From assembly GCA_038733315.1 (NCBI GenBank), contig JAVYPJ010000001.1, positions 333,020-397,019 of the forward strand: a DNA stretch of 64,000 nt, given 5' to 3'. The position numbers and the translations under genes are program-made. The notes beneath the pieces are model-generated. The model saw only the letters and a program-made list of their open reading frames with translations. It had not been told where the DNA came from and searched no databases. Below, in pieces: positions 14,691 to 44,989 of the stretch. How positions within the stretch are numbered: position 1 is the stretch's first letter; every line of letters begins with the position of its first letter. Source of the stretch: Candidatus Aenigmatarchaeota archaeon. Its GTDB lineage: Archaea > Aenigmatarchaeota > Aenigmatarchaeia > CG10238-14 > SpSt-28.

Positions 14691-14743
14691 AAAACGATTT
14701 TATATAGGATTTTTTCTAAGATTTATTTTATATAGAATTTTAT

Positions 14744-14892
14744 GCCGGGGTCGCCTAGCTGGCTATGGCGGCGGACTTGAGTGACAGATTGGCGTGAAAC
14801 TGATTAGAAAATGAAAAATGATGTGGGTGTCGAAATGAGAAAGAAATCCGCTGGGCTTTACGCCCGCGTGGGTTCAAATCCCACCCCCGGCG
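14744..14892 (+). tRNA. tRNA-Ser(TGA) with 64-nt intron at 37/38 (14782-14845)
   Basis: GCGGA-CTTGAG/intron/A-TCCGC; long variable arm GGGC-TTTAC-GCCC; G73. Confidence 0.95.
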
Positions 14893-15418
14893 ATATATTT
14901 TGATTTAACTTATATTTATTTTTGCAATATTCAAAAAATTCTTCAACTATTTTTTTAGTTATTTCTATGAAAATATTTTTTTCGAGCGCTGGTAATTCTA
15001 ATACTATAGTATTTTTGCAAAGAACATCATCTATTATGCAAACATAATAATTGTTAATTCTTTCAGCAATTTTCCTTCCATTTTCATCTATTAAGAATTG
15101 TTCTGTTGAAGCTTTTAGATTATAATTTTTTAATATATCTTCTATTTTCTTAGAAATAGAGATTAAATCTTCTTTTTTGGGATAAATTATTATCGAATAT
15201 TCTTTATATTCTTTTTTCTTATCCAATACATTTTCATGAATTTCTAAAATTAAGGGATTTTCTTCATATAAATCTTTTATATATTTTATAAACTCGTTTC
15301 TTTTTTCAAAATTTTTAAACTCTATTTCTTTATTTTTGAATTCATCAGAAATAATACTAAATGCCTCTTTTGGTAATTTTTCTCCTTTATGCTCAAAACA
15401 AACAACTATAAGCTTCAT
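14858..15418 (-). CDS. Hypothetical protein
   Basis: 186-aa ORF with host-like composition; its 3' end runs 35 nt antisense into tRNA-Ser. Confidence 0.6.
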   Translation of the reverse strand: MKLIVVCFEHKGEKLPKEAFSIISDEFKNKEIEFKNFEKRNEFIKYIKDLYEENPLILEIHENVLDKKKEYKEYSIIIYPKKEDLISISKKIEDILKNYNLKASTEQFLIDENGRKIAERINNYYVCIIDDVLCKNTIVLELPALEKNIFIEITKKIVEEFFEYCKNKYKLNQNISPGVGFEPTRA

Positions 15419-34917: not shown

Positions 34918-36000
34918 TTAAAAATACTTTAAGTATTCTAAAATTCTTTTATCTTTTTTCAATCCTACGAAATCTTCTAGAACCTCTCTTTTTAATATAT
35001 CAAAACATTCTTGGAGAACCTCTAAAAACTCTCGCCTTTCTCTTTTAACGTGGAAATAATTCCTATAATCGCTAAAAGTTATGTGTATGCTGTAAATGTC
35101 TTTACTTTTTTCTATATGAATTTTTAAGAATCCTTGCTTAAAATGTTTTTTAGCTCTTTTTATAAAATTCTTAATGTAAGATTCTAAATGCTCTAAATAA
35201 TAGCTTTTGACGTTTTCTTTTCCTATTAATATAACATTTATTTTTTCTAAAGTTTCCTCTACTAACGGTTTTATTAAATCTTTCTTTGTTATTATTCCTA
35301 ATAAATTTTCTTTAACTAGGCATGAAATTTTGTAGTTGAGTAGTTTCTTTATTACGTATGAAATCTTTTCGTTGTTTGAATATGTTATTACGTTTTTAGA
35401 AGCTATTGAAGTTATTGGGTTTTCAAATATTTTATATTTTTTTCCAATAAGCTCTCCAAGAGTTTCTCTATTCTTAGATTCTCTAATAAGAAAGTCTGTA
35501 ACATCTTTTGAAGATACAATTCCAACTATTTTTCCATTTTCGACTATCGGAATATGGGAAATATTATATTTTGCCATTAGTTTAATCACTTTAAATATCG
35601 TTTCATTCGGGTTTACTAAAACAATATTTTTAGTTTCTATTTCTTCAACCTTCAGATTTCCAAACCTTTCTTTAACTTTTTCTAGTAAAGAATCTATATG
35701 TATCATACCAATAACTTTATCGCTCTTATCTAAATATGCTGCTATGTAACAATCGTTTTCTAACATTCTTCTAGAAATTTCACTTTCATTAATTTCATAA
35801 ACTTTACAATCTCTTTTTCTTATGTTTTTTATTTTTTCGTTTAAATTTTTTTCTGTTATAATATCTCTTAATTTTATAATACCTTTATATTCGTTTTTGT
35901 TATTTACAACAATTATTTCTCTTATGTTGTTTTCATTCATTAATTTAATAGCATTTTTTAATGTTTCGTTTTCTTCTATTGTTATTGGTTTTGTAATCAT
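34918..36000 (-). CDS. Four-CBS-domain protein with probable C-terminal HPF/RaiA-like domain
   Basis: CBS motifs (KGII, IGMI, PIV..GKIVGIVS, LGIIT) then a ~100-aa beta-alpha-beta-beta-beta-alpha pattern. Confidence 0.8.
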   Translation of the reverse strand: MITKPITIEENETLKNAIKLMNENNIREIIVVNNKNEYKGIIKLRDIITEKNLNEKIKNIRKRDCKVYEINESEISRRMLENDCYIAAYLDKSDKVIGMIHIDSLLEKVKERFGNLKVEEIETKNIVLVNPNETIFKVIKLMAKYNISHIPIVENGKIVGIVSSKDVTDFLIRESKNRETLGELIGKKYKIFENPITSIASKNVITYSNNEKISYVIKKLLNYKISCLVKENLLGIITKKDLIKPLVEETLEKINVILIGKENVKSYYLEHLESYIKNFIKRAKKHFKQGFLKIHIEKSKDIYSIHITFSDYRNYFHVKRERREFLEVLQECFDILKREVLEDFVGLKKDKRILEYLKYF

Positions 36001-36122
36001 CTTGCTTGAACTCTTTTGATTTTTTGTGGTCTTATTTTTTCGAAAATTCTATATCCGCAGTTTAAGCAAATTATTCTATCAATTTTTTCATAAATTTTTT
36101 TACATCTTACGCATCTATACAT
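35997..36122 (-). CDS. rpo12: RNA polymerase subunit Rpo12 (P)
   Basis: Manually translated MYRCVRCKKIYEKIDRIICLNCGYRIFEKIRPQKIKRVQAR; follows rpl37ae as usual in archaea. Confidence 0.95.
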   Translation of the reverse strand: MYRCVRCKKIYEKIDRIICLNCGYRIFEKIRPQKIKRVQAR

Positions 36123-36126
36123 GTTT

Positions 36127-36351
36127 TTACTTGACCTTTACGCCAGGTGGAAAGTATGCTGAGGAAGCTACTTTTGTATTACATTTTTTACATTGCCATA
36201 TTCCAGTAGAAACTCTTTTTAACTTTTTAAACCCACATTTTGGGCAAACATGCTTAGATTTTTGAATAAGCTCGATTTTATCTATCTTTTCTCTTAGGGT
36301 CATTCCGTATCTTGCTCCAAATCTTCCACTTGAACCAACCCTTCTTACCAT
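36127..36351 (-). CDS. rpl37ae: 50S ribosomal protein eL43 (L37ae)
   Basis: GRFGARYG..LR, CPKC, R.STGIWQC..C. Confidence 0.97.
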   Translation of the reverse strand: MVRRVGSSGRFGARYGMTLREKIDKIELIQKSKHVCPKCGFKKLKRVSTGIWQCKKCNTKVASSAYFPPGVKVK

Positions 36352-36459
36352 AGAGAATATTATCTTAATTAAAAAATTAATATACTTTTCGATTATTTAG
36401 TTTATCTCATTTTTACTATTTTCTGGAATTTTAATGCTAAGTAAAATAAATGTTGTATA

Positions 36460-36578
36460 TGCGGGGGGTGGGATTTGAACCCACGACGGCTCTACGCCAT
36501 CGGGTTTCTTATCATTTATTCAAAGCTTAAGATTTTATCTTAAGCCCGACGCCCTTGACCAGGCTAGGCGACCCCCGC
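36460..36578 (-). tRNA. tRNA-Leu(TAA) with 33-nt intron at 37/38 (36506-36538)
   Basis: TCGGG-CTTAAG/intron/A-CCCGA; long variable arm; A73. Confidence 0.95.
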
Positions 36579-36628
36579 TTATAATTTAAATTACATCAAA
36601 TTAATTTAAATTAATCTCTCTATTAATT

Positions 36629-38038
36629 TTAGGCTTGATCTTGAATATACTTTTCTCCTTTTCTTAATTTTTCAAAAGCTTTTGTAATTTCTTTTCCTAA
36701 ATATAAAGCATGATCATATAAACTAAAAAAACTTCCACCCTTTAAGGAATTGTATATTTCCCAAAAATCCTTACTTTCGATTTTAAAATCTATTAAAGAA
36801 TTATCTGGGGTTCTATGTTCTAAAACTATTTTATCATTCTCTTGATAAATTAAAAATAGACCTTTTGGATCTTCTACAAATTCTTTCATTTTAAATGAAT
36901 ATTTATTCAATATTTCTCTTACTAAATTCCAATCGTGCTGATAAATATGTGCACTTGTAGAAATTGTTGTTATTGTTTCGATTTCAAAATTCGATTTAGT
37001 TTCTTTATTTATTTCATTAACAATATATTCTGCTAATTTTATTTGAGCAACAATATTTATTGGCCATCCTTTGACCATATCATTACTTCTAATCCAAACA
37101 GTATGATTATAATAATTTTCTGTTATTATTCCTTGAATACCTATTATGCATGGTGGATTTGGGGAATTTTGATCTATTAAATGATCCCATGAAACAATTA
37201 AAGCTCTTCTTGAATAAGGAGCTTTAGATAATTTGTCAATTAAATATTTAACTTGATTTTTTCCAAATCTATGTTCAAAGATTCTTTCTCCATATGTATA
37301 TTCTACACTTTCTAATTTTTTTGGATATAAAACTTCATTAATATGCCTTTCAAAATCTTCTCTTTTCAAAAATTCAAAAAATTCTTCTTCAATTTTATAT
37401 TCTTTACCATATAGACCTATAGTAATCATTAAATTTAAAAATTCTTTTTGTGGTTCTTCATATTCTGAAAATTTTATACTTCCAAATTTCATTATTAAAT
37501 CTAAAATTTTTATCCATGCTCTAAAAATGCTTGTATCGTATATATAGCTACCGCTTAATGGAATTGGCCAAGAAGCTAATTCTACTTTTTCTTCAATTGT
37601 TATATCGATTTTTTCTCTAACTTCTTTTGCATTTGTTTTAAAATTTTTTTCTATTTCTTCTTCAAGTTTTTTAATATTATTTCTTTTAAATTCTTCTCTT
37701 AAATCAATAATTTTAACTGTATTCAAAACATTTTCAATTTTATTTATTGGAAAAATTATTTTATAATCTTTAAAATTTTTGTTTTTAAAAACATCGATTA
37801 AAGCTTTTCCACTTAGAGATAAATCAGCACCATAGATTATTAAAGTATCTATTTTTGGAAATTGTGCTAACGTTTCCAAAATAAAATTAATTCCATAAGT
37901 TGTATAAGTAGTTCCAATAATTCCAATTTTACTTCTTATTTTCTCTTGTAGTTGATTTAAAATTATTTCTTTTTTTGACCATAGAGTTGATATAGCAATA
38001 TTACTATTTTCATTTAAGATTATTATATCTTTTTTCAT
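36629..38038 (-). CDS. thyA: Thymidylate synthase (ThyA-type) with MtrA-like N-terminal and DUF4346-like C-terminal domains
   Basis: YTYGER, SRRA, PPC, RSND...GWP.N, SAHIY; N-terminal ISTLWS/GINFIL; C-terminal DPKG...HALYLGKE...YIQD. Confidence 0.85.
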   Translation of the reverse strand: MKKDIIILNENSNIAISTLWSKKEIILNQLQEKIRSKIGIIGTTYTTYGINFILETLAQFPKIDTLIIYGADLSLSGKALIDVFKNKNFKDYKIIFPINKIENVLNTVKIIDLREEFKRNNIKKLEEEIEKNFKTNAKEVREKIDITIEEKVELASWPIPLSGSYIYDTSIFRAWIKILDLIMKFGSIKFSEYEEPQKEFLNLMITIGLYGKEYKIEEEFFEFLKREDFERHINEVLYPKKLESVEYTYGERIFEHRFGKNQVKYLIDKLSKAPYSRRALIVSWDHLIDQNSPNPPCIIGIQGIITENYYNHTVWIRSNDMVKGWPINIVAQIKLAEYIVNEINKETKSNFEIETITTISTSAHIYQHDWNLVREILNKYSFKMKEFVEDPKGLFLIYQENDKIVLEHRTPDNSLIDFKIESKDFWEIYNSLKGGSFFSLYDHALYLGKEITKAFEKLRKGEKYIQDQA

Positions 38039-38074
38039 ATGTTTTTATTTGTTTGAATTAATAAATAGTTATAA

Positions 38075-39226
38075 ATGATTGAAATTGCGTTAGTTGGAAA
38101 GCCAAATTCTGGAAAATCTACATTTTTTAAAGCAGCAACTCTAATGGATGTTAAAATTTCAAATATTCCTTTTACAACATTAAAACCAAACAGAGGAATT
38201 GCTTATGTATCAACTCAATGTGTTTGTAAAGAATTTAATGTTAAATGCAATCCTCAAGATGGATTTTGCATAGATGGATTAAGATTTATTCCAATAATTC
38301 TTTGGGATGTCCCGGGATTAATTCCAGAGGCTCATAAGGGAAAAGGATTAGGAATAGAATTTTTATCGGCTATAAATCATGTAGATGGAATTGTTTATAT
38401 TATAGATATTAGTGGGAAAACTGATTTAGAAGGAAAAGAAATAGAATTTTCAAGTCCAATAGAAGAGGTAAAATTTCTTTTAAATGAATTAATTCAATGG
38501 TATAAACAAAATATTCAAAAGCACATTCCGAAATATTATAAAAATGAAAAAGAATTAATAGATATTTTATCTCAAAAACTTAGCGGGTTAAAAATAAAAA
38601 GAGAGCAAATAGAAAAACATATTGATAAAATAAACGATTTGGAAAGTTTCTCTAAGGCATTACTATTCGAAAGCAAAAAAATGATTATTGCTGCGAATAA
38701 AATTGATGAGGAAAAATCTGAAAAAAATTTAAAAGAATTAAAAGAATTTTTAGAAAAAGAAAGTATTAATATAAAGATTGTTGCTTCTAGCGCTTTAAGT
38801 GAATTAATTTTAAGAACCTTAAGTCAAAAAGGGATAATAGAGTATAATTTCAAAAGTTTTGAAATTTTAAGGAAAAATGAATTAACTAGCGAACAAATAA
38901 ATGCACTAGAAAGAATTAAAGAATTATTAGAAAAATATAATGGAAGTTTTATATTGAATGTTTTAAATGCTTTAGTTTTTGATGTTATGCAATATAAAGT
39001 TGTTTTTCCTGTTGAAAATGAAAATAAATTAAGCGATAAAAAAGGAAATATTTTACCAAATGCAATTTTATTGGAAAAGGATGCAAAAACAATAGATTTA
39101 GCTGAAAAAATTCATTCTGAAATAGCTAAAAATTTTTTATATGCAATTGAAATTAAAAGCAGAAAAAGAATAGGTAAAGATTATATTTTAAATCATAGAG
39201 ATGTAATAAAGATATATCACGCATAA
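38075..39226 (+). CDS. YchF/OLA1-like (Ygr210 subfamily) OBG GTPase with TGS domain
   Basis: GKPNSGKST, PFTT, DVPGL, ANKID, DLAEKIHS. Confidence 0.92.
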   Translation: MIEIALVGKPNSGKSTFFKAATLMDVKISNIPFTTLKPNRGIAYVSTQCVCKEFNVKCNPQDGFCIDGLRFIPIILWDVPGLIPEAHKGKGLGIEFLSAINHVDGIVYIIDISGKTDLEGKEIEFSSPIEEVKFLLNELIQWYKQNIQKHIPKYYKNEKELIDILSQKLSGLKIKREQIEKHIDKINDLESFSKALLFESKKMIIAANKIDEEKSEKNLKELKEFLEKESINIKIVASSALSELILRTLSQKGIIEYNFKSFEILRKNELTSEQINALERIKELLEKYNGSFILNVLNALVFDVMQYKVVFPVENENKLSDKKGNILPNAILLEKDAKTIDLAEKIHSEIAKNFLYAIEIKSRKRIGKDYILNHRDVIKIYHA

Positions 39227-39275
39227 TCAGAAGTACTCCTTTTCATCATTTTTCAGATGCGGCGGTATTCTTCAT
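39227..39275 (-). ncRNA. Box C/D guide sRNA
   Basis: ATGAAGA-ATACCGCCGCAT-CTGA-AAA-ATGATGA-AAAGGAGTACTT-CTGA; two 12-nt guides. Confidence 0.92.
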
Positions 39276-39310
39276 AAAAATTAAATTTTAACAAATTTCA
39301 AATTTATTAT

Positions 39311-39449
39311 GCCGGGGTCGCCTAGCGGATATGGCGCCGGCCTCGAGTTAAATGATAAGCTCTGGGGTAGCTGAAAATAATGATGATTTTGCTATAAGAG
39401 AAAGCCGGTGGGCTTTACGCCCGCGTGGGTTCAAATCCCACCCCCGGCG
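39311..39449 (+). tRNA. tRNA-Ser(CGA) with 55-nt intron at 37/38 (39348-39402)
   Basis: CCGGC-CTCGAG/intron/A-GCCGG; variable arm and 3' part identical to tRNA-Ser(TGA). Confidence 0.95.
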
Positions 39450-39510
39450 AAAAGTTTGTGCTTAGCAAATTTTTTAAAAAAATAAATTAATTATAATATC
39501 TAATAAATTA

Positions 39511-40722
39511 ATGAAGTTAACAGCTAGCGATATTAAAAACGAAGGAGAATTTAAAGTTTATGGAATTGTTAGTCATGTAAGAGAGCTAGGTCCTAAAAAA
39601 TTTATAATAATAACTGATGGAAAAGACATTTTGCAAGTAGTTTATGAAGGTAATAAAAGGGTTAAAAGAGGGGATAGCATTTTTGCAGTTGGAAATGCAT
39701 TTTTTGATAAAAGAGCTCCAAGAGGAATAGAGCTTAGAGCAAAAGATATAGAAATAATTAATGAAATAAAAGAGGAATCTTTTGATGAATGGAGTATAAA
39801 AAGAATGAGTTTAGACAAAAAAATTAAATATAGAAGTATAAGCTTGAGAATTCCAGAATTTTACAAAATATTCGAAATATATGCTAAGGTTACGCATTAT
39901 TTCAGAGAGTTTTTCATAAATTTAGGCTATTTAGAAATCTTTACTCCAAAGGTTGTTAAAATGGGAACAGAATCCGGGGCTGAAGTATTTTCTATATTAT
40001 ATTTCGATAAAGAAGCTTTTTTAGCGCAGAGTCCGCAACTATATAAACAAATGATGTTAGCTAGCGGTTTAAAAGGTGTTTTTGAGTTTGGTCATTATTA
40101 TAGGGCAGAGGCTTCAAGAACTAAGAGACACTTAACAGAATTTTATTGTTTAGATGTTGAAATAAATTATGTTGAAAGCTTAGACGATGTTATGAAAGTT
40201 TTAGAAGATGCAATAAAATATGTTCTTGAGAAATTTAATTTAAAAATAGAGAAAATACCAATACTAACTTTTGATGAAGCTAAAGAGATTTTAGAAAGAA
40301 ATGGAATAAAAACTAAAAAAGATTTAACAACAGAGGGAGAAAAGTTTATTGGGGATTATGTTAAAGAAAATTTTAATTCCGATTTTGTTTTTATTACAGA
40401 ATTTCCCTTCGACGTAAAACCGTTTTATGTTATGAAAAAAGATGATGGGAAAAGTTATTCTTTTGATTTATTATTTAAAGGTTTAGAAATAGTTTCTGGG
40501 GCTAAAAGAGAGCATAGATACGAAATTCTTATTAATCAAATAAAAGAGAAGAAAATAAATCCAGAAAGAATGTATTGGTATTTAGAAACTTTTAAGCATG
40601 GAATTCCTCCACATGGTGGTTTTGGTTTAGGAATAGATAGATTTGTTAAGCAAATGCTAAACTTAGATGATATAAGAGAATGTGTTTTATATCCTAGAGA
40701 TCCAGATACCTTAGAGCCATGA
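39511..40722 (+). CDS. aspS: Aspartyl-tRNA synthetase (probably non-discriminating)
   Basis: LAQSPQLYKQ, YRAE, RHLTEF, PPHGGFGLGIDR, PRD; co-operonic with gatCAB. Confidence 0.95.
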   Translation: MKLTASDIKNEGEFKVYGIVSHVRELGPKKFIIITDGKDILQVVYEGNKRVKRGDSIFAVGNAFFDKRAPRGIELRAKDIEIINEIKEESFDEWSIKRMSLDKKIKYRSISLRIPEFYKIFEIYAKVTHYFREFFINLGYLEIFTPKVVKMGTESGAEVFSILYFDKEAFLAQSPQLYKQMMLASGLKGVFEFGHYYRAEASRTKRHLTEFYCLDVEINYVESLDDVMKVLEDAIKYVLEKFNLKIEKIPILTFDEAKEILERNGIKTKKDLTTEGEKFIGDYVKENFNSDFVFITEFPFDVKPFYVMKKDDGKSYSFDLLFKGLEIVSGAKREHRYEILINQIKEKKINPERMYWYLETFKHGIPPHGGFGLGIDRFVKQMLNLDDIRECVLYPRDPDTLEP

Positions 40723-44803: not shown

Positions 44804-44850
44804 ATAAATTTATCAGAGATAATAAAGTTAAATTCTTCGTATAATATCAT

Positions 44851-44947
44851 TGGGGCCGCTGGGATTCGAACCCAGGTCAGCGGGTTTCTTCACTTTTCTG
44901 AGCTCCATTTCTGGAGCCCGCCGTCCTGCCATCTAGACGACGGCCCC
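44851..44947 (-). tRNA. tRNA-Trp(CCA) with 25-nt intron at 37/38 (44886-44910)
   Basis: GCGGG-CTCCAG/intron/A-CCCGC. Confidence 0.95.
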
Positions 44948-44989
44948 ATAAATTGTTAAGATTTTTATATCTTTTCATAAAATATTTAT

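Follow-up and report, generated by a model that had tools for sequence, protein, structure and literature searches.

A 33-nt intron in an Aenigmatarchaeota tRNA-Leu(UAA) gene is a candidate minimal self-guide for ribose methylation of the wobble nucleotide

In bacteria, nt 34 of tRNA-Leu(UAA) is 2'-O-methylated by TrmL, a stand-alone protein enzyme that works without an RNA guide. Yeast Trm7-Trm734 is also described as a protein enzyme that forms Nm34 without a guide RNA, on the nucleotide and by the chemistry proposed below for an archaeal tRNA (PMC6847430). In Pyrococcus, trans-acting box C/D sRNAs are predicted to act on nt 34 of four tRNAs, the two for Leu(CAA) and Leu(UAA) and those for Met and Trp (PMC7994747); all four species are among the targets considered here. 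A guide within the intron of its own target is described for euryarchaeal pre-tRNA-Trp, where an intron of about 60 to 105 nt carries both C/D and C'/D' motifs and guides for C34 and U39 (PMC11408192, PMC4090602, PMC7994747), and reviews of 2014 and 2024 present this tRNA-Trp intron as the sole intron-encoded guide for its own tRNA (PMC4090602, PMC11408192). The elongator tRNA-Met intron of Nanoarchaeum equitans is described as a stable box C/D sRNA, 66 nt long, that includes a GC hairpin (PMC3491384). Guides with a single box pair have been reported as artificial constructs. The engineered "hemi" box C/D RNP of Hardin and Batey (2006) has one box pair and a guide, like the intron described below; this single-site archaeal complex was active in vitro but lost site specificity, for which both motifs were needed (PMC1635284). 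The minimal single-domain snoRNA of Deryusheva and Gall (2019), also artificial and also comprised of one box pair and a guide, is reported to work in a eukaryote (cited in PMC7994747).

Here we examined the 33-nt intron of a tRNA-Leu(UAA) gene in the window, by which we mean the whole 64,000-nucleotide stretch of DNA that was analyzed (Table 1), from a member of the Aenigmatarchaeota, one of the DPANN lineages. A preliminary description had taken this intron for a self-guide directing methylation of U34 (Um34), and our analysis supports that reading to the extent that the predictions made at the level of sequence, namely, guide covariation, the N+5 register, the boxes, and the presence of genes for the machinery, all held. 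Comparison with related genomes confirmed that the arrangement is real and is a conserved feature of the Leu(UAA) intron. The interpretation we favor, with a little better than even confidence, is that the intron serves as a minimal box C'/D' guide for Nm34 with a single kink-loop, acting in cis and before splicing.

Table 1. Positions in the window of the tRNA-Leu(UAA) gene, the elements of its intron, and related features
Feature	Position	Strand	Basis or remark
tRNA-Leu(UAA) gene, 119 nt with intron	36460..36578	-	Rfam tRNA, 47 bits; ARAGORN with intron search; cloverleaf parse
Intron, 33 nt, canonical 37/38 site	36506..36538	-	Sequence, ARAGORN, cloverleaf parse
Anticodon-loop nt 32-37 (CUUAAG); proposed target U34 at 36542	36539..36544	-	Sequence and cloverleaf parse
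Antisense (guide) element UCUUAAGCU, intron nt 7-15; A11 at 36528 opposite U34	36524..36532	-	
Box D'-like UUGA	36520..36523	-	YUGA conserved in 47/50 module introns
4-nt loop AUAA, proposed kink-loop	36516..36519	-	Loops of 1-8 nt among 50 introns
Box C'-like AUGAUAA	36509..36515	-	Same variant as C' box of a bona fide sRNA in the genome
3' splicing motif UAAG (pairs with C32-A35), then bulge A-A/A38	36505..36511	-	Shares 3 nt with C'-like box
tRNA-Trp(CCA) gene	44850..44948	-	25-nt intron 44886-44910, same design: UGGAGC-U-CAGA-AAA-GUGAAGA-A
tRNA-Ser(UGA) gene	14743..14893	+	64-nt intron with box-like motifs GUGAAACUGA, AAUGAUG
D-guide target of sRNA C2:59116-59165, 10 bp, A31 to intron nt 3 of pre-tRNA-Ser(UGA)	14775..14784	+	
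Canonical C/D sRNA AUGAAGA-12 nt-CUGA-AAA-AUGAUGA-12 nt-CUGA	39227..39275	-	Unannotated; 35 nt upstream of tRNA-Ser(CGA)

The tRNA-Leu(UAA) gene was missed by ARAGORN in a default run and was recovered with the intron search on. When the minus strand was read again, the layout of the intron, AUAAAA-UCUUAAGCU-UUGA-AUAA-AUGAUAA-GAA, was identical to the one first described. The nine pairs claimed between intron nt 7 to 15 and tRNA nt 30 to 38, one of them G.U, could be read directly off the sequence as U15.G30, C14-G31, G13-C32, A12-U33, A11-U34, U10-A35, U9-A36, C8-G37, and U7-A38, with intron A1 as an alternative partner of U7. As had also been stated, the partner of U34 is A11, the fifth base upstream of UUGA.

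The genome has a G+C content of about 27%, and CUUAAG is self-complementary, so that in tRNA-Leu(UAA) alone a copy of the anticodon loop is indistinguishable from its complement. Both facts speak for a chance resemblance in an A+T-rich intron next to a palindromic anticodon loop. Of 100,000 dinucleotide-preserving shuffles of the intron, however, only 113 satisfied a relaxed form of the pattern (at least six contiguous pairs including nt 34, YUGA at N+5, and RUGA within 10 nt), and the set of related introns described below also exceeded its shuffled counterparts. Since tRNAs with nonpalindromic loops show the complement of those loops, the relationship is one of complementarity and not of copying; with covariation present in such loops as well, we count the chance explanation as refuted.

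The source genome (G000; 733 kb in 7 contigs, rated 4.2% contaminated) contains 49 tRNA genes, 15 of them with introns, as found by ARAGORN with the intron search across the whole genome. After the cloverleafs were parsed again, a common layout emerged: the complement of nt 31 to 37, any one nucleotide, YUGA, a loop of 1 to 8 nt, RUGA..AAG, and AA immediately before A38. We refer to this layout as the module. It is carried by Leu(UAA), Leu(CAA), Gln(UUG), Lys(UUU), Glu(UUC), Met(CAU), Trp(CCA), and a Ser(UGA) on contig C3, and in each case the antisense stretch fits the anticodon of its own tRNA. The tRNAs that carry it decode split NNR boxes or single codons: four of the five U34 decoders of two-codon NNR boxes have the module, Arg(UCU) being the one without, as do three C34 tRNAs, those for Leu(CAA), elongator-type Met, and Trp. 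The module is absent from all eight tRNAs on contigs C1 and C2 that read four-codon boxes with U34, and likewise from the introns found in Ile(UAU), Thr(UGU), Cys, Tyr, Ala(CGC), and Ser(CGA). The Ile(UAU) tRNA (C2:111494-111594) and its relatives L038, L047, and L059 have a canonical intron of 18 to 25 nt without a guide module. The Ser(UGA) module gene on contig C3 (C3:7405-7518) is identical to a gene (L054) of another genus, and the source genome has eight matches to the covariance model described below, against six or seven in genomes of the same genus; contig C3, 14 kb long, is for these reasons possibly foreign DNA or contamination.

The sample of relatives was comprised of the best tRNA-Leu match from each of 29 related genomes, together with all tRNA-model matches of at least 90 nt from three genomes of increasing distance, minus three Leu loci already taken. 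ARAGORN reported 87 genes of at least 89 nt in this sample, including one intron-less Leu; 74 were parsed and 13 unparsable genes were left out. Six of the parsed rows were dropped as mis-parsed, among them Ala(CGC) of the source genome, which probably has a real 17-nt intron without the module, leaving 68 canonical-intron tRNAs from 30 genomes. The strict layout was present in 46 of the 68, compared with a mean of 0.13 and a maximum of 2 in 1,000 dinucleotide shuffles, and a version with looser boxes in 50 of the 68, compared with a mean of 0.47 in 1,000 shuffles. Division of the 68 introns by anticodon was clear-cut: the module was found in every intron of CAA (21/21), UAA (10/10), CAU (3/3), CCA (4/4), UGA (3/3), UUC (3/3), UUG (4/4), and UUU (2/2) tRNAs and in 0 of the 18 introns of CGA, GCA, GGA, GUA, UAG, UAU, and UGU tRNAs.

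An alignment of 49 of these introns (48 distinct rows; the weakly passing 64-nt Ser(UGA) intron of the source genome was left out) was used to follow the covariation of guide and anticodon among paralogues and orthologues; for orthologues, the preliminary description had named this as a check. Nucleotide 34 was paired with the guide in 48 of 48 distinct rows, as 28 C-G and 20 U-A pairs, in an alignment whose rows were picked by a rule that demands this pairing; because every intron of the eight anticodon classes passed, the rule introduced no bias into the counts within those classes. Rows drawn from related genomes, which are not independent samples, also paired with the guide in 48 of 48 cases at nt 35 (with four pair types), in 48 of 48 at nt 36, in 47 of 48 at nt 31, and in 29 of 48 at nt 37. 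Six double changes occurred at nt 31, including A31 with a guide U in L022, in L029, and in L119, a Met intron from another family. Sliding the partner by one column lowered pairing from 96% to between 40 and 53%, and all 49 aligned introns keep nt 34 at N+5. By comparison, the splicing-helix partner of nt 34 was paired in only 18 of 40 rows, which indicates that it is the 5' antisense element, rather than the splicing helix, that is held to pairing with the wobble base. The antisense measures 9 to 11 bp in Leu(UAA) introns, with a core of 6 to 7 bp in most paralogues.

When 151 genomes from across the phylum were searched with a covariance model built from the alignment (R1), 89 gave matches, from one to eight each. 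Counts by family in the organism's own order were 7/7 (f1), 31/31 (f2), 10/10 (f5), 1/1 (f3), 1/1 (f6), and 0/1 (f7), and the remaining families, all of the same class, were patchier (e.g., f18, 10/11; f9, 4/7; f15, 0/7). In other archaea, introns are known to have spread from one tRNA gene to another, and here the introns of different tRNAs share a common core, GC-U-YUGA...AUGA..AAGAA. They might accordingly have been inherited from duplicated or transposed introns, the complement of the anticodon being a relic of insertion with no present function. We regard this as highly improbable: the antisense follows each anticodon, as well as changes at nt 31 that arose independently in more than one lineage, and across the 89 genomes of the phylum the spacers and loops drift while the boxes and the register stay fixed, a sign of purifying selection.

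Among 50 module introns, the D' box is UUGA in 36, CUGA in 11, and a one-off variant in 3; the C' box always starts with RUGA; and UGA is kept on both box sides in 47. In a C/D kink-turn, position 1 of box D pairs with position 6 of box C, beside a U.U pair and tandem G.A pairs. The corresponding combinations of D' position 1 and C' position 6 were C:G in 11 introns, U:A in 29, U:G in 8, and C:A in 2, so that 48 of 50 can pair (Fisher's test on these nonindependent rows, P of ~1e-4); the 26 unique combinations comprised 8 C:G, 15 U:A, 1 U:G, and 2 C:A. Judged from the aligned sequences, the module boxes covary as expected of a kink-loop, and the Leu(UAA) intron has the internal D'-then-C' order of such a loop (UUGA-AUAA-AUGAUAA).

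Other hallmarks of a box C/D RNA are missing from this intron. No terminal RUGAUGA/CUGA pair was found in its 33 nt or at its ends, and the linear intron has no C-type box 5' of the guide and hence no C-to-D spacing of about 12 nt; after a hypothetical ring closure, the spacer from C' to D' would be 18 nt in Leu(UAA) and 11 to 13 nt in the shortest introns (25 to 27 nt). The C'-like boxes AUGAUAA, AUGAAAG, and AUGAAG deviate from RUGAUGA. At the Rfam gathering score, the Leu(UAA) region matched tRNA only, and the Rfam C/D families gave no match between positions 36300 and 36750 at E values up to 10. A kink-turn formed by the 5' bulge and intron nt 2 to 3 (GA) with the C'-like box was considered and rejected; it fits Leu(CAA) only. 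Against a self-guide stand the single kink motif with no terminal C/D pair, the degenerate C'-like boxes, and the short cores of 6 to 7 bp, archaeal guides being described as usually having 10 to 12 nt of antisense (PMC7994747). A tethered target may stand in for the second anchor.

The precursor has two competing folds. In fold A, the guide hairpin, nt 31 to 37 pair with intron nt 8 to 14, a duplex extended by i1-i2 with i6-i7, and UUGA, the 4-nt loop, and AUGAUAA follow on the 3' side in the D'-loop-C' order of the archaeal kink-loop. Unconstrained folding of the whole pre-tRNA-Leu(UAA) formed the guide duplex (z = -4.1). In fold B, the splicing fold, the anticodon stem is intact and C32 to A35 pair with UAAG (intron nt 28 to 31) in four of four positions, producing a bulge-helix-bulge with a 4-bp helix and two 3-nt bulges, A36-G37-A(i1) and A-A-A38, that contain both cleavage sites; the motif is relaxed, since the outer helix h' is absent. 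The two folds are mutually exclusive because 3 nt of the C'-like box also belong to the splicing helix. On RNA energy alone, fold A was the more stable in 40 of 49 module introns at 37°C (means of -11.1 and -8.2 kcal/mol for folds A and B) and was preferred in 42 of 49 at 70°C. In the C34 tRNAs, a C.A mismatch is tolerated in the splicing helix.

The overlap of the C'-like box with the splicing helix means that part of the conservation of this box may serve splicing, and it lends some weight to an explanation in which the kink-loop and hairpin are a device for folding or splicing, with L7Ae and the masking of the anticodon ordering maturation or aiding the endonuclease. A Thr, a Cys, and a Phe intron (L046, L055, and L057) keep YUGA...RUGA without antisense against nt 34, as such a device would allow, and a single motif without the second site that specificity is reported to need in vitro (PMC1635284) fits it as well. 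We judge this explanation improbable, since the introns of Ile(UAU), Thr(UGU), Tyr, Cys, and Ala(CGC) must splice without the device in the same genomes, and since it accounts neither for the constant placement of nt 34 at N+5, nor for the confinement of the device to tRNAs that decode NNR boxes or single codons, nor for the stand-alone sRNA aimed at the same position of Ser(UGA) (see below).

Two of the introns just named, from tRNA-Cys (L055) and tRNA-Thr(UGU) (L046) of genome G012, have a further peculiarity. The stretch upstream of their YUGA-loop-RUGA pairs with the last two intron bases and with nt 38 to 43 or 38 to 41 of the 3' exon. By hand alignment, with no statistics attached, N+5 falls on nt 39, which is the second site of the known tRNA-Trp intron.

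A strict regular expression found three canonical C/D sRNAs in the genome and none in five shuffles. One of these, C2:59116-59165 (minus strand), lies outside the window and has inner boxes UUGA/AUGAUAA, the same variants as in the Leu(UAA) intron. Its D' guide fits GAUUAGAUAC in 16S rRNA, a motif with no further exact copy in the genome, and its D guide spans the exon-intron junction of pre-tRNA-Ser(UGA), placing N+5 on U34 in the same register as the intron modules. No self-guide was found in the 64-nt intron of this Ser(UGA) gene (Table 1). Four further genomes of the genus keep the sRNA with its Ser(UGA) D guide. The homologue in two genomes of a neighboring genus retains the 16S guide and has a different D guide, and in one of these two genomes (G012), Ser(UGA) has an intron module instead. 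This exchange of sRNA and intron, seen in a single comparison, is what would be expected if both devices did the same job.

Several additional elements of this kind were noted. The D' guide of the sRNA at 39227 to 39275 can be matched to the 5' ends of tRNAs and their leader only if one central mismatch is allowed. The neighboring tRNA-Ser(CGA) (39310-39450, plus strand) has a 55-nt intron, AUGAUAA-GCUCUGGGGUAG-CUGA-AAAUA-AUGAUGA-..., which resembles a C-guide-D'-loop-C' arrangement without a closing D box; its 12-nt guide recurs unchanged in a relative (L006), and no target for it was found in the genome. A module-like sequence outside any tRNA, at C2:113301 (plus strand), reads GUGAAAG-AAAA-GUAAGG-U-UUGA-UCAA-AUGAUAG, and its antisense part fits nt 31 to 36 of the intron-less tRNA-Val(UAC), which may be chance. 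A search for stand-alone guides against nt 34 of 33 intron-less tRNA species returned only a few unconvincing matches.

The machinery that a guide would need is encoded in the genome. Fibrillarin, Nop5, and L7Ae scored 270, 149, and 98 bits, respectively, all above the Pfam cutoffs. EndA is a single 407-aa frame with two endonuclease-domain matches of the catalytic type, which would fit a broad-specificity enzyme like the three-unit type described from ultrasmall archaea (PMC3239211). RtcB is also present (C2:267525-270278, minus strand), in two pieces (profile positions 1 to 28 and 28 to 426) inside one 971-aa frame, suggesting an intein-like insertion of ~480 residues. An archaeal SRP RNA was noted in the window.

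U34 is probably base modified as well, given that Elp3 (560 bits; C1:191168-192679, plus strand) and a PP-loop ATPase are encoded, so the product may be of the xm5Um type and not plain Um. A list of nucleotides mapped at nt 34 in other archaea includes mchm5Um, s2Um, Um, Cm, and ac4Cm (PMC7668247). The suggestion that Nm34 substitutes for missing pathways of U34 base modification was rejected, Elp3 and the PP-loop ATPase being encoded. The tRNA-Gln(UUG) gene that carries a module (C1:190074-190179) is followed ~1 kb downstream by the Elp3 gene.

These observations can be combined in a model of self-guided methylation. We infer that the precursor would fold into fold A, intron nt 8 to 14 (extended by nt 6 to 7 and 15) lying on nt 31 to 37 of the same molecule, whereupon UUGA and AUGAUAA, 4 nt apart, would form a kink-loop to which L7Ae binds. 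Nop5 and fibrillarin would then dock, and the 2'-OH of U34, opposite the fifth guide base upstream of UUGA, would be methylated. Upon refolding, the 3' UAAG would pair with C32 to A35 to form the bulge-helix-bulge (loop) motif, EndA would cut the refolded precursor, and RtcB would ligate the exons.

In an alternative that we consider unlikely, the excised and probably circularized intron, with L7Ae, Nop5, and fibrillarin, would methylate spliced tRNA or other precursors in trans, as the Trp intron of Haloferax volcanii is reported to do (PMC11408192, PMC4090602). Such a guide could use the pair between U7 and A38 of mature tRNA-Leu(UAA), and ring closure of the 25- to 27-nt introns would leave 11 to 13 nt between the C'-like and D'-like boxes, near the canonical 12; in longer introns, the same closure would give spacers of 18 to 26 nt. 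Pairing beyond nt 37 divides between the two possibilities, with the precursor the better fit in 13 of 29 introns, the mature tRNA in 9, and ties in 7, and the Lys(UUU) guide runs into intron nt 1 to 3, which favors the precursor. The shortness of the A/U-rich core in an organism from hot springs argues for an intramolecular duplex, since a bimolecular one of 6 to 7 bp would be weak there. A search for sequencing runs covering positions 35500 to 40500 of the window returned 18 DNA runs labeled hot-springs metagenome and no RNA run. Action in cis, before splicing, remains the interpretation we prefer.

A wider proposal can be put forward tentatively, and with less than even confidence: in Aenigmatarchaeota, and perhaps in DPANN archaea, most short tRNA introns may be kept as cis-acting guides for wobble methylation, one for each of the tRNAs that decode split NNR boxes or single codons, as natural "hemi" box C/D RNPs with a single kink-loop whose job is transferable to a stand-alone sRNA, as for Ser(UGA). 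If the self-guide reading is right, a whole lineage relies on pared-down guides in the introns of seven or eight tRNAs, and there is a concrete selective reason for the retention of tRNA introns. Wobble ribose methylation would then appear as a general need of split-box decoding in tiny thermophilic archaea. The family would also offer a natural test of the minimal RNA requirement of the box C/D enzyme, and, if introns are generally guides, tRNA introns would have a general function and a single box pair would be enough when the target is tethered.

Among the papers listed by literature searches in which "C/D" was unusable as a query, none, judged by title and abstract opening, describes guides with a single kink-loop in the introns of tRNAs for Leu, Gln, Lys, or Glu. 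The closest described system, the pre-tRNA-Trp intron guide of H. volcanii and Pyrococcus (sR50), is likewise an intron at position 37/38 with antisense to its own tRNA and N+5 at nt 34. Its reported dependence on L7Ae, Nop5, and fibrillarin and the competition between its guide and the splicing motif have a parallel here that is read from the sequence and the gene content. The introns described here differ from it in being 25 to 41 nt long, with one kink-loop and one guide, and in occurring in seven or eight tRNA species; instead of the sR50-type double guide, a single guide and box pair are found in tRNA-Leu and also in the Trp intron of the source genome.

The elongator tRNA-Met intron of N. 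equitans (Randau 2012, PMC3491384) comes from a DPANN archaeon and a non-Trp tRNA, has C/D-like boxes, and was proposed to be a guide, and it has a counterpart in the Met(CAU) module found here; what the present data add is an explicit target register and a design that is shared by a family. The Leu and Met guides of Pyrococcus are described as separate double-motif genes, whereas here the guide lies inside the intron of its own target. With the artificial single-motif RNAs, finally, the module has its minimal architecture in common, and it differs from them in being natural, conserved, and tethered to its target in cis.
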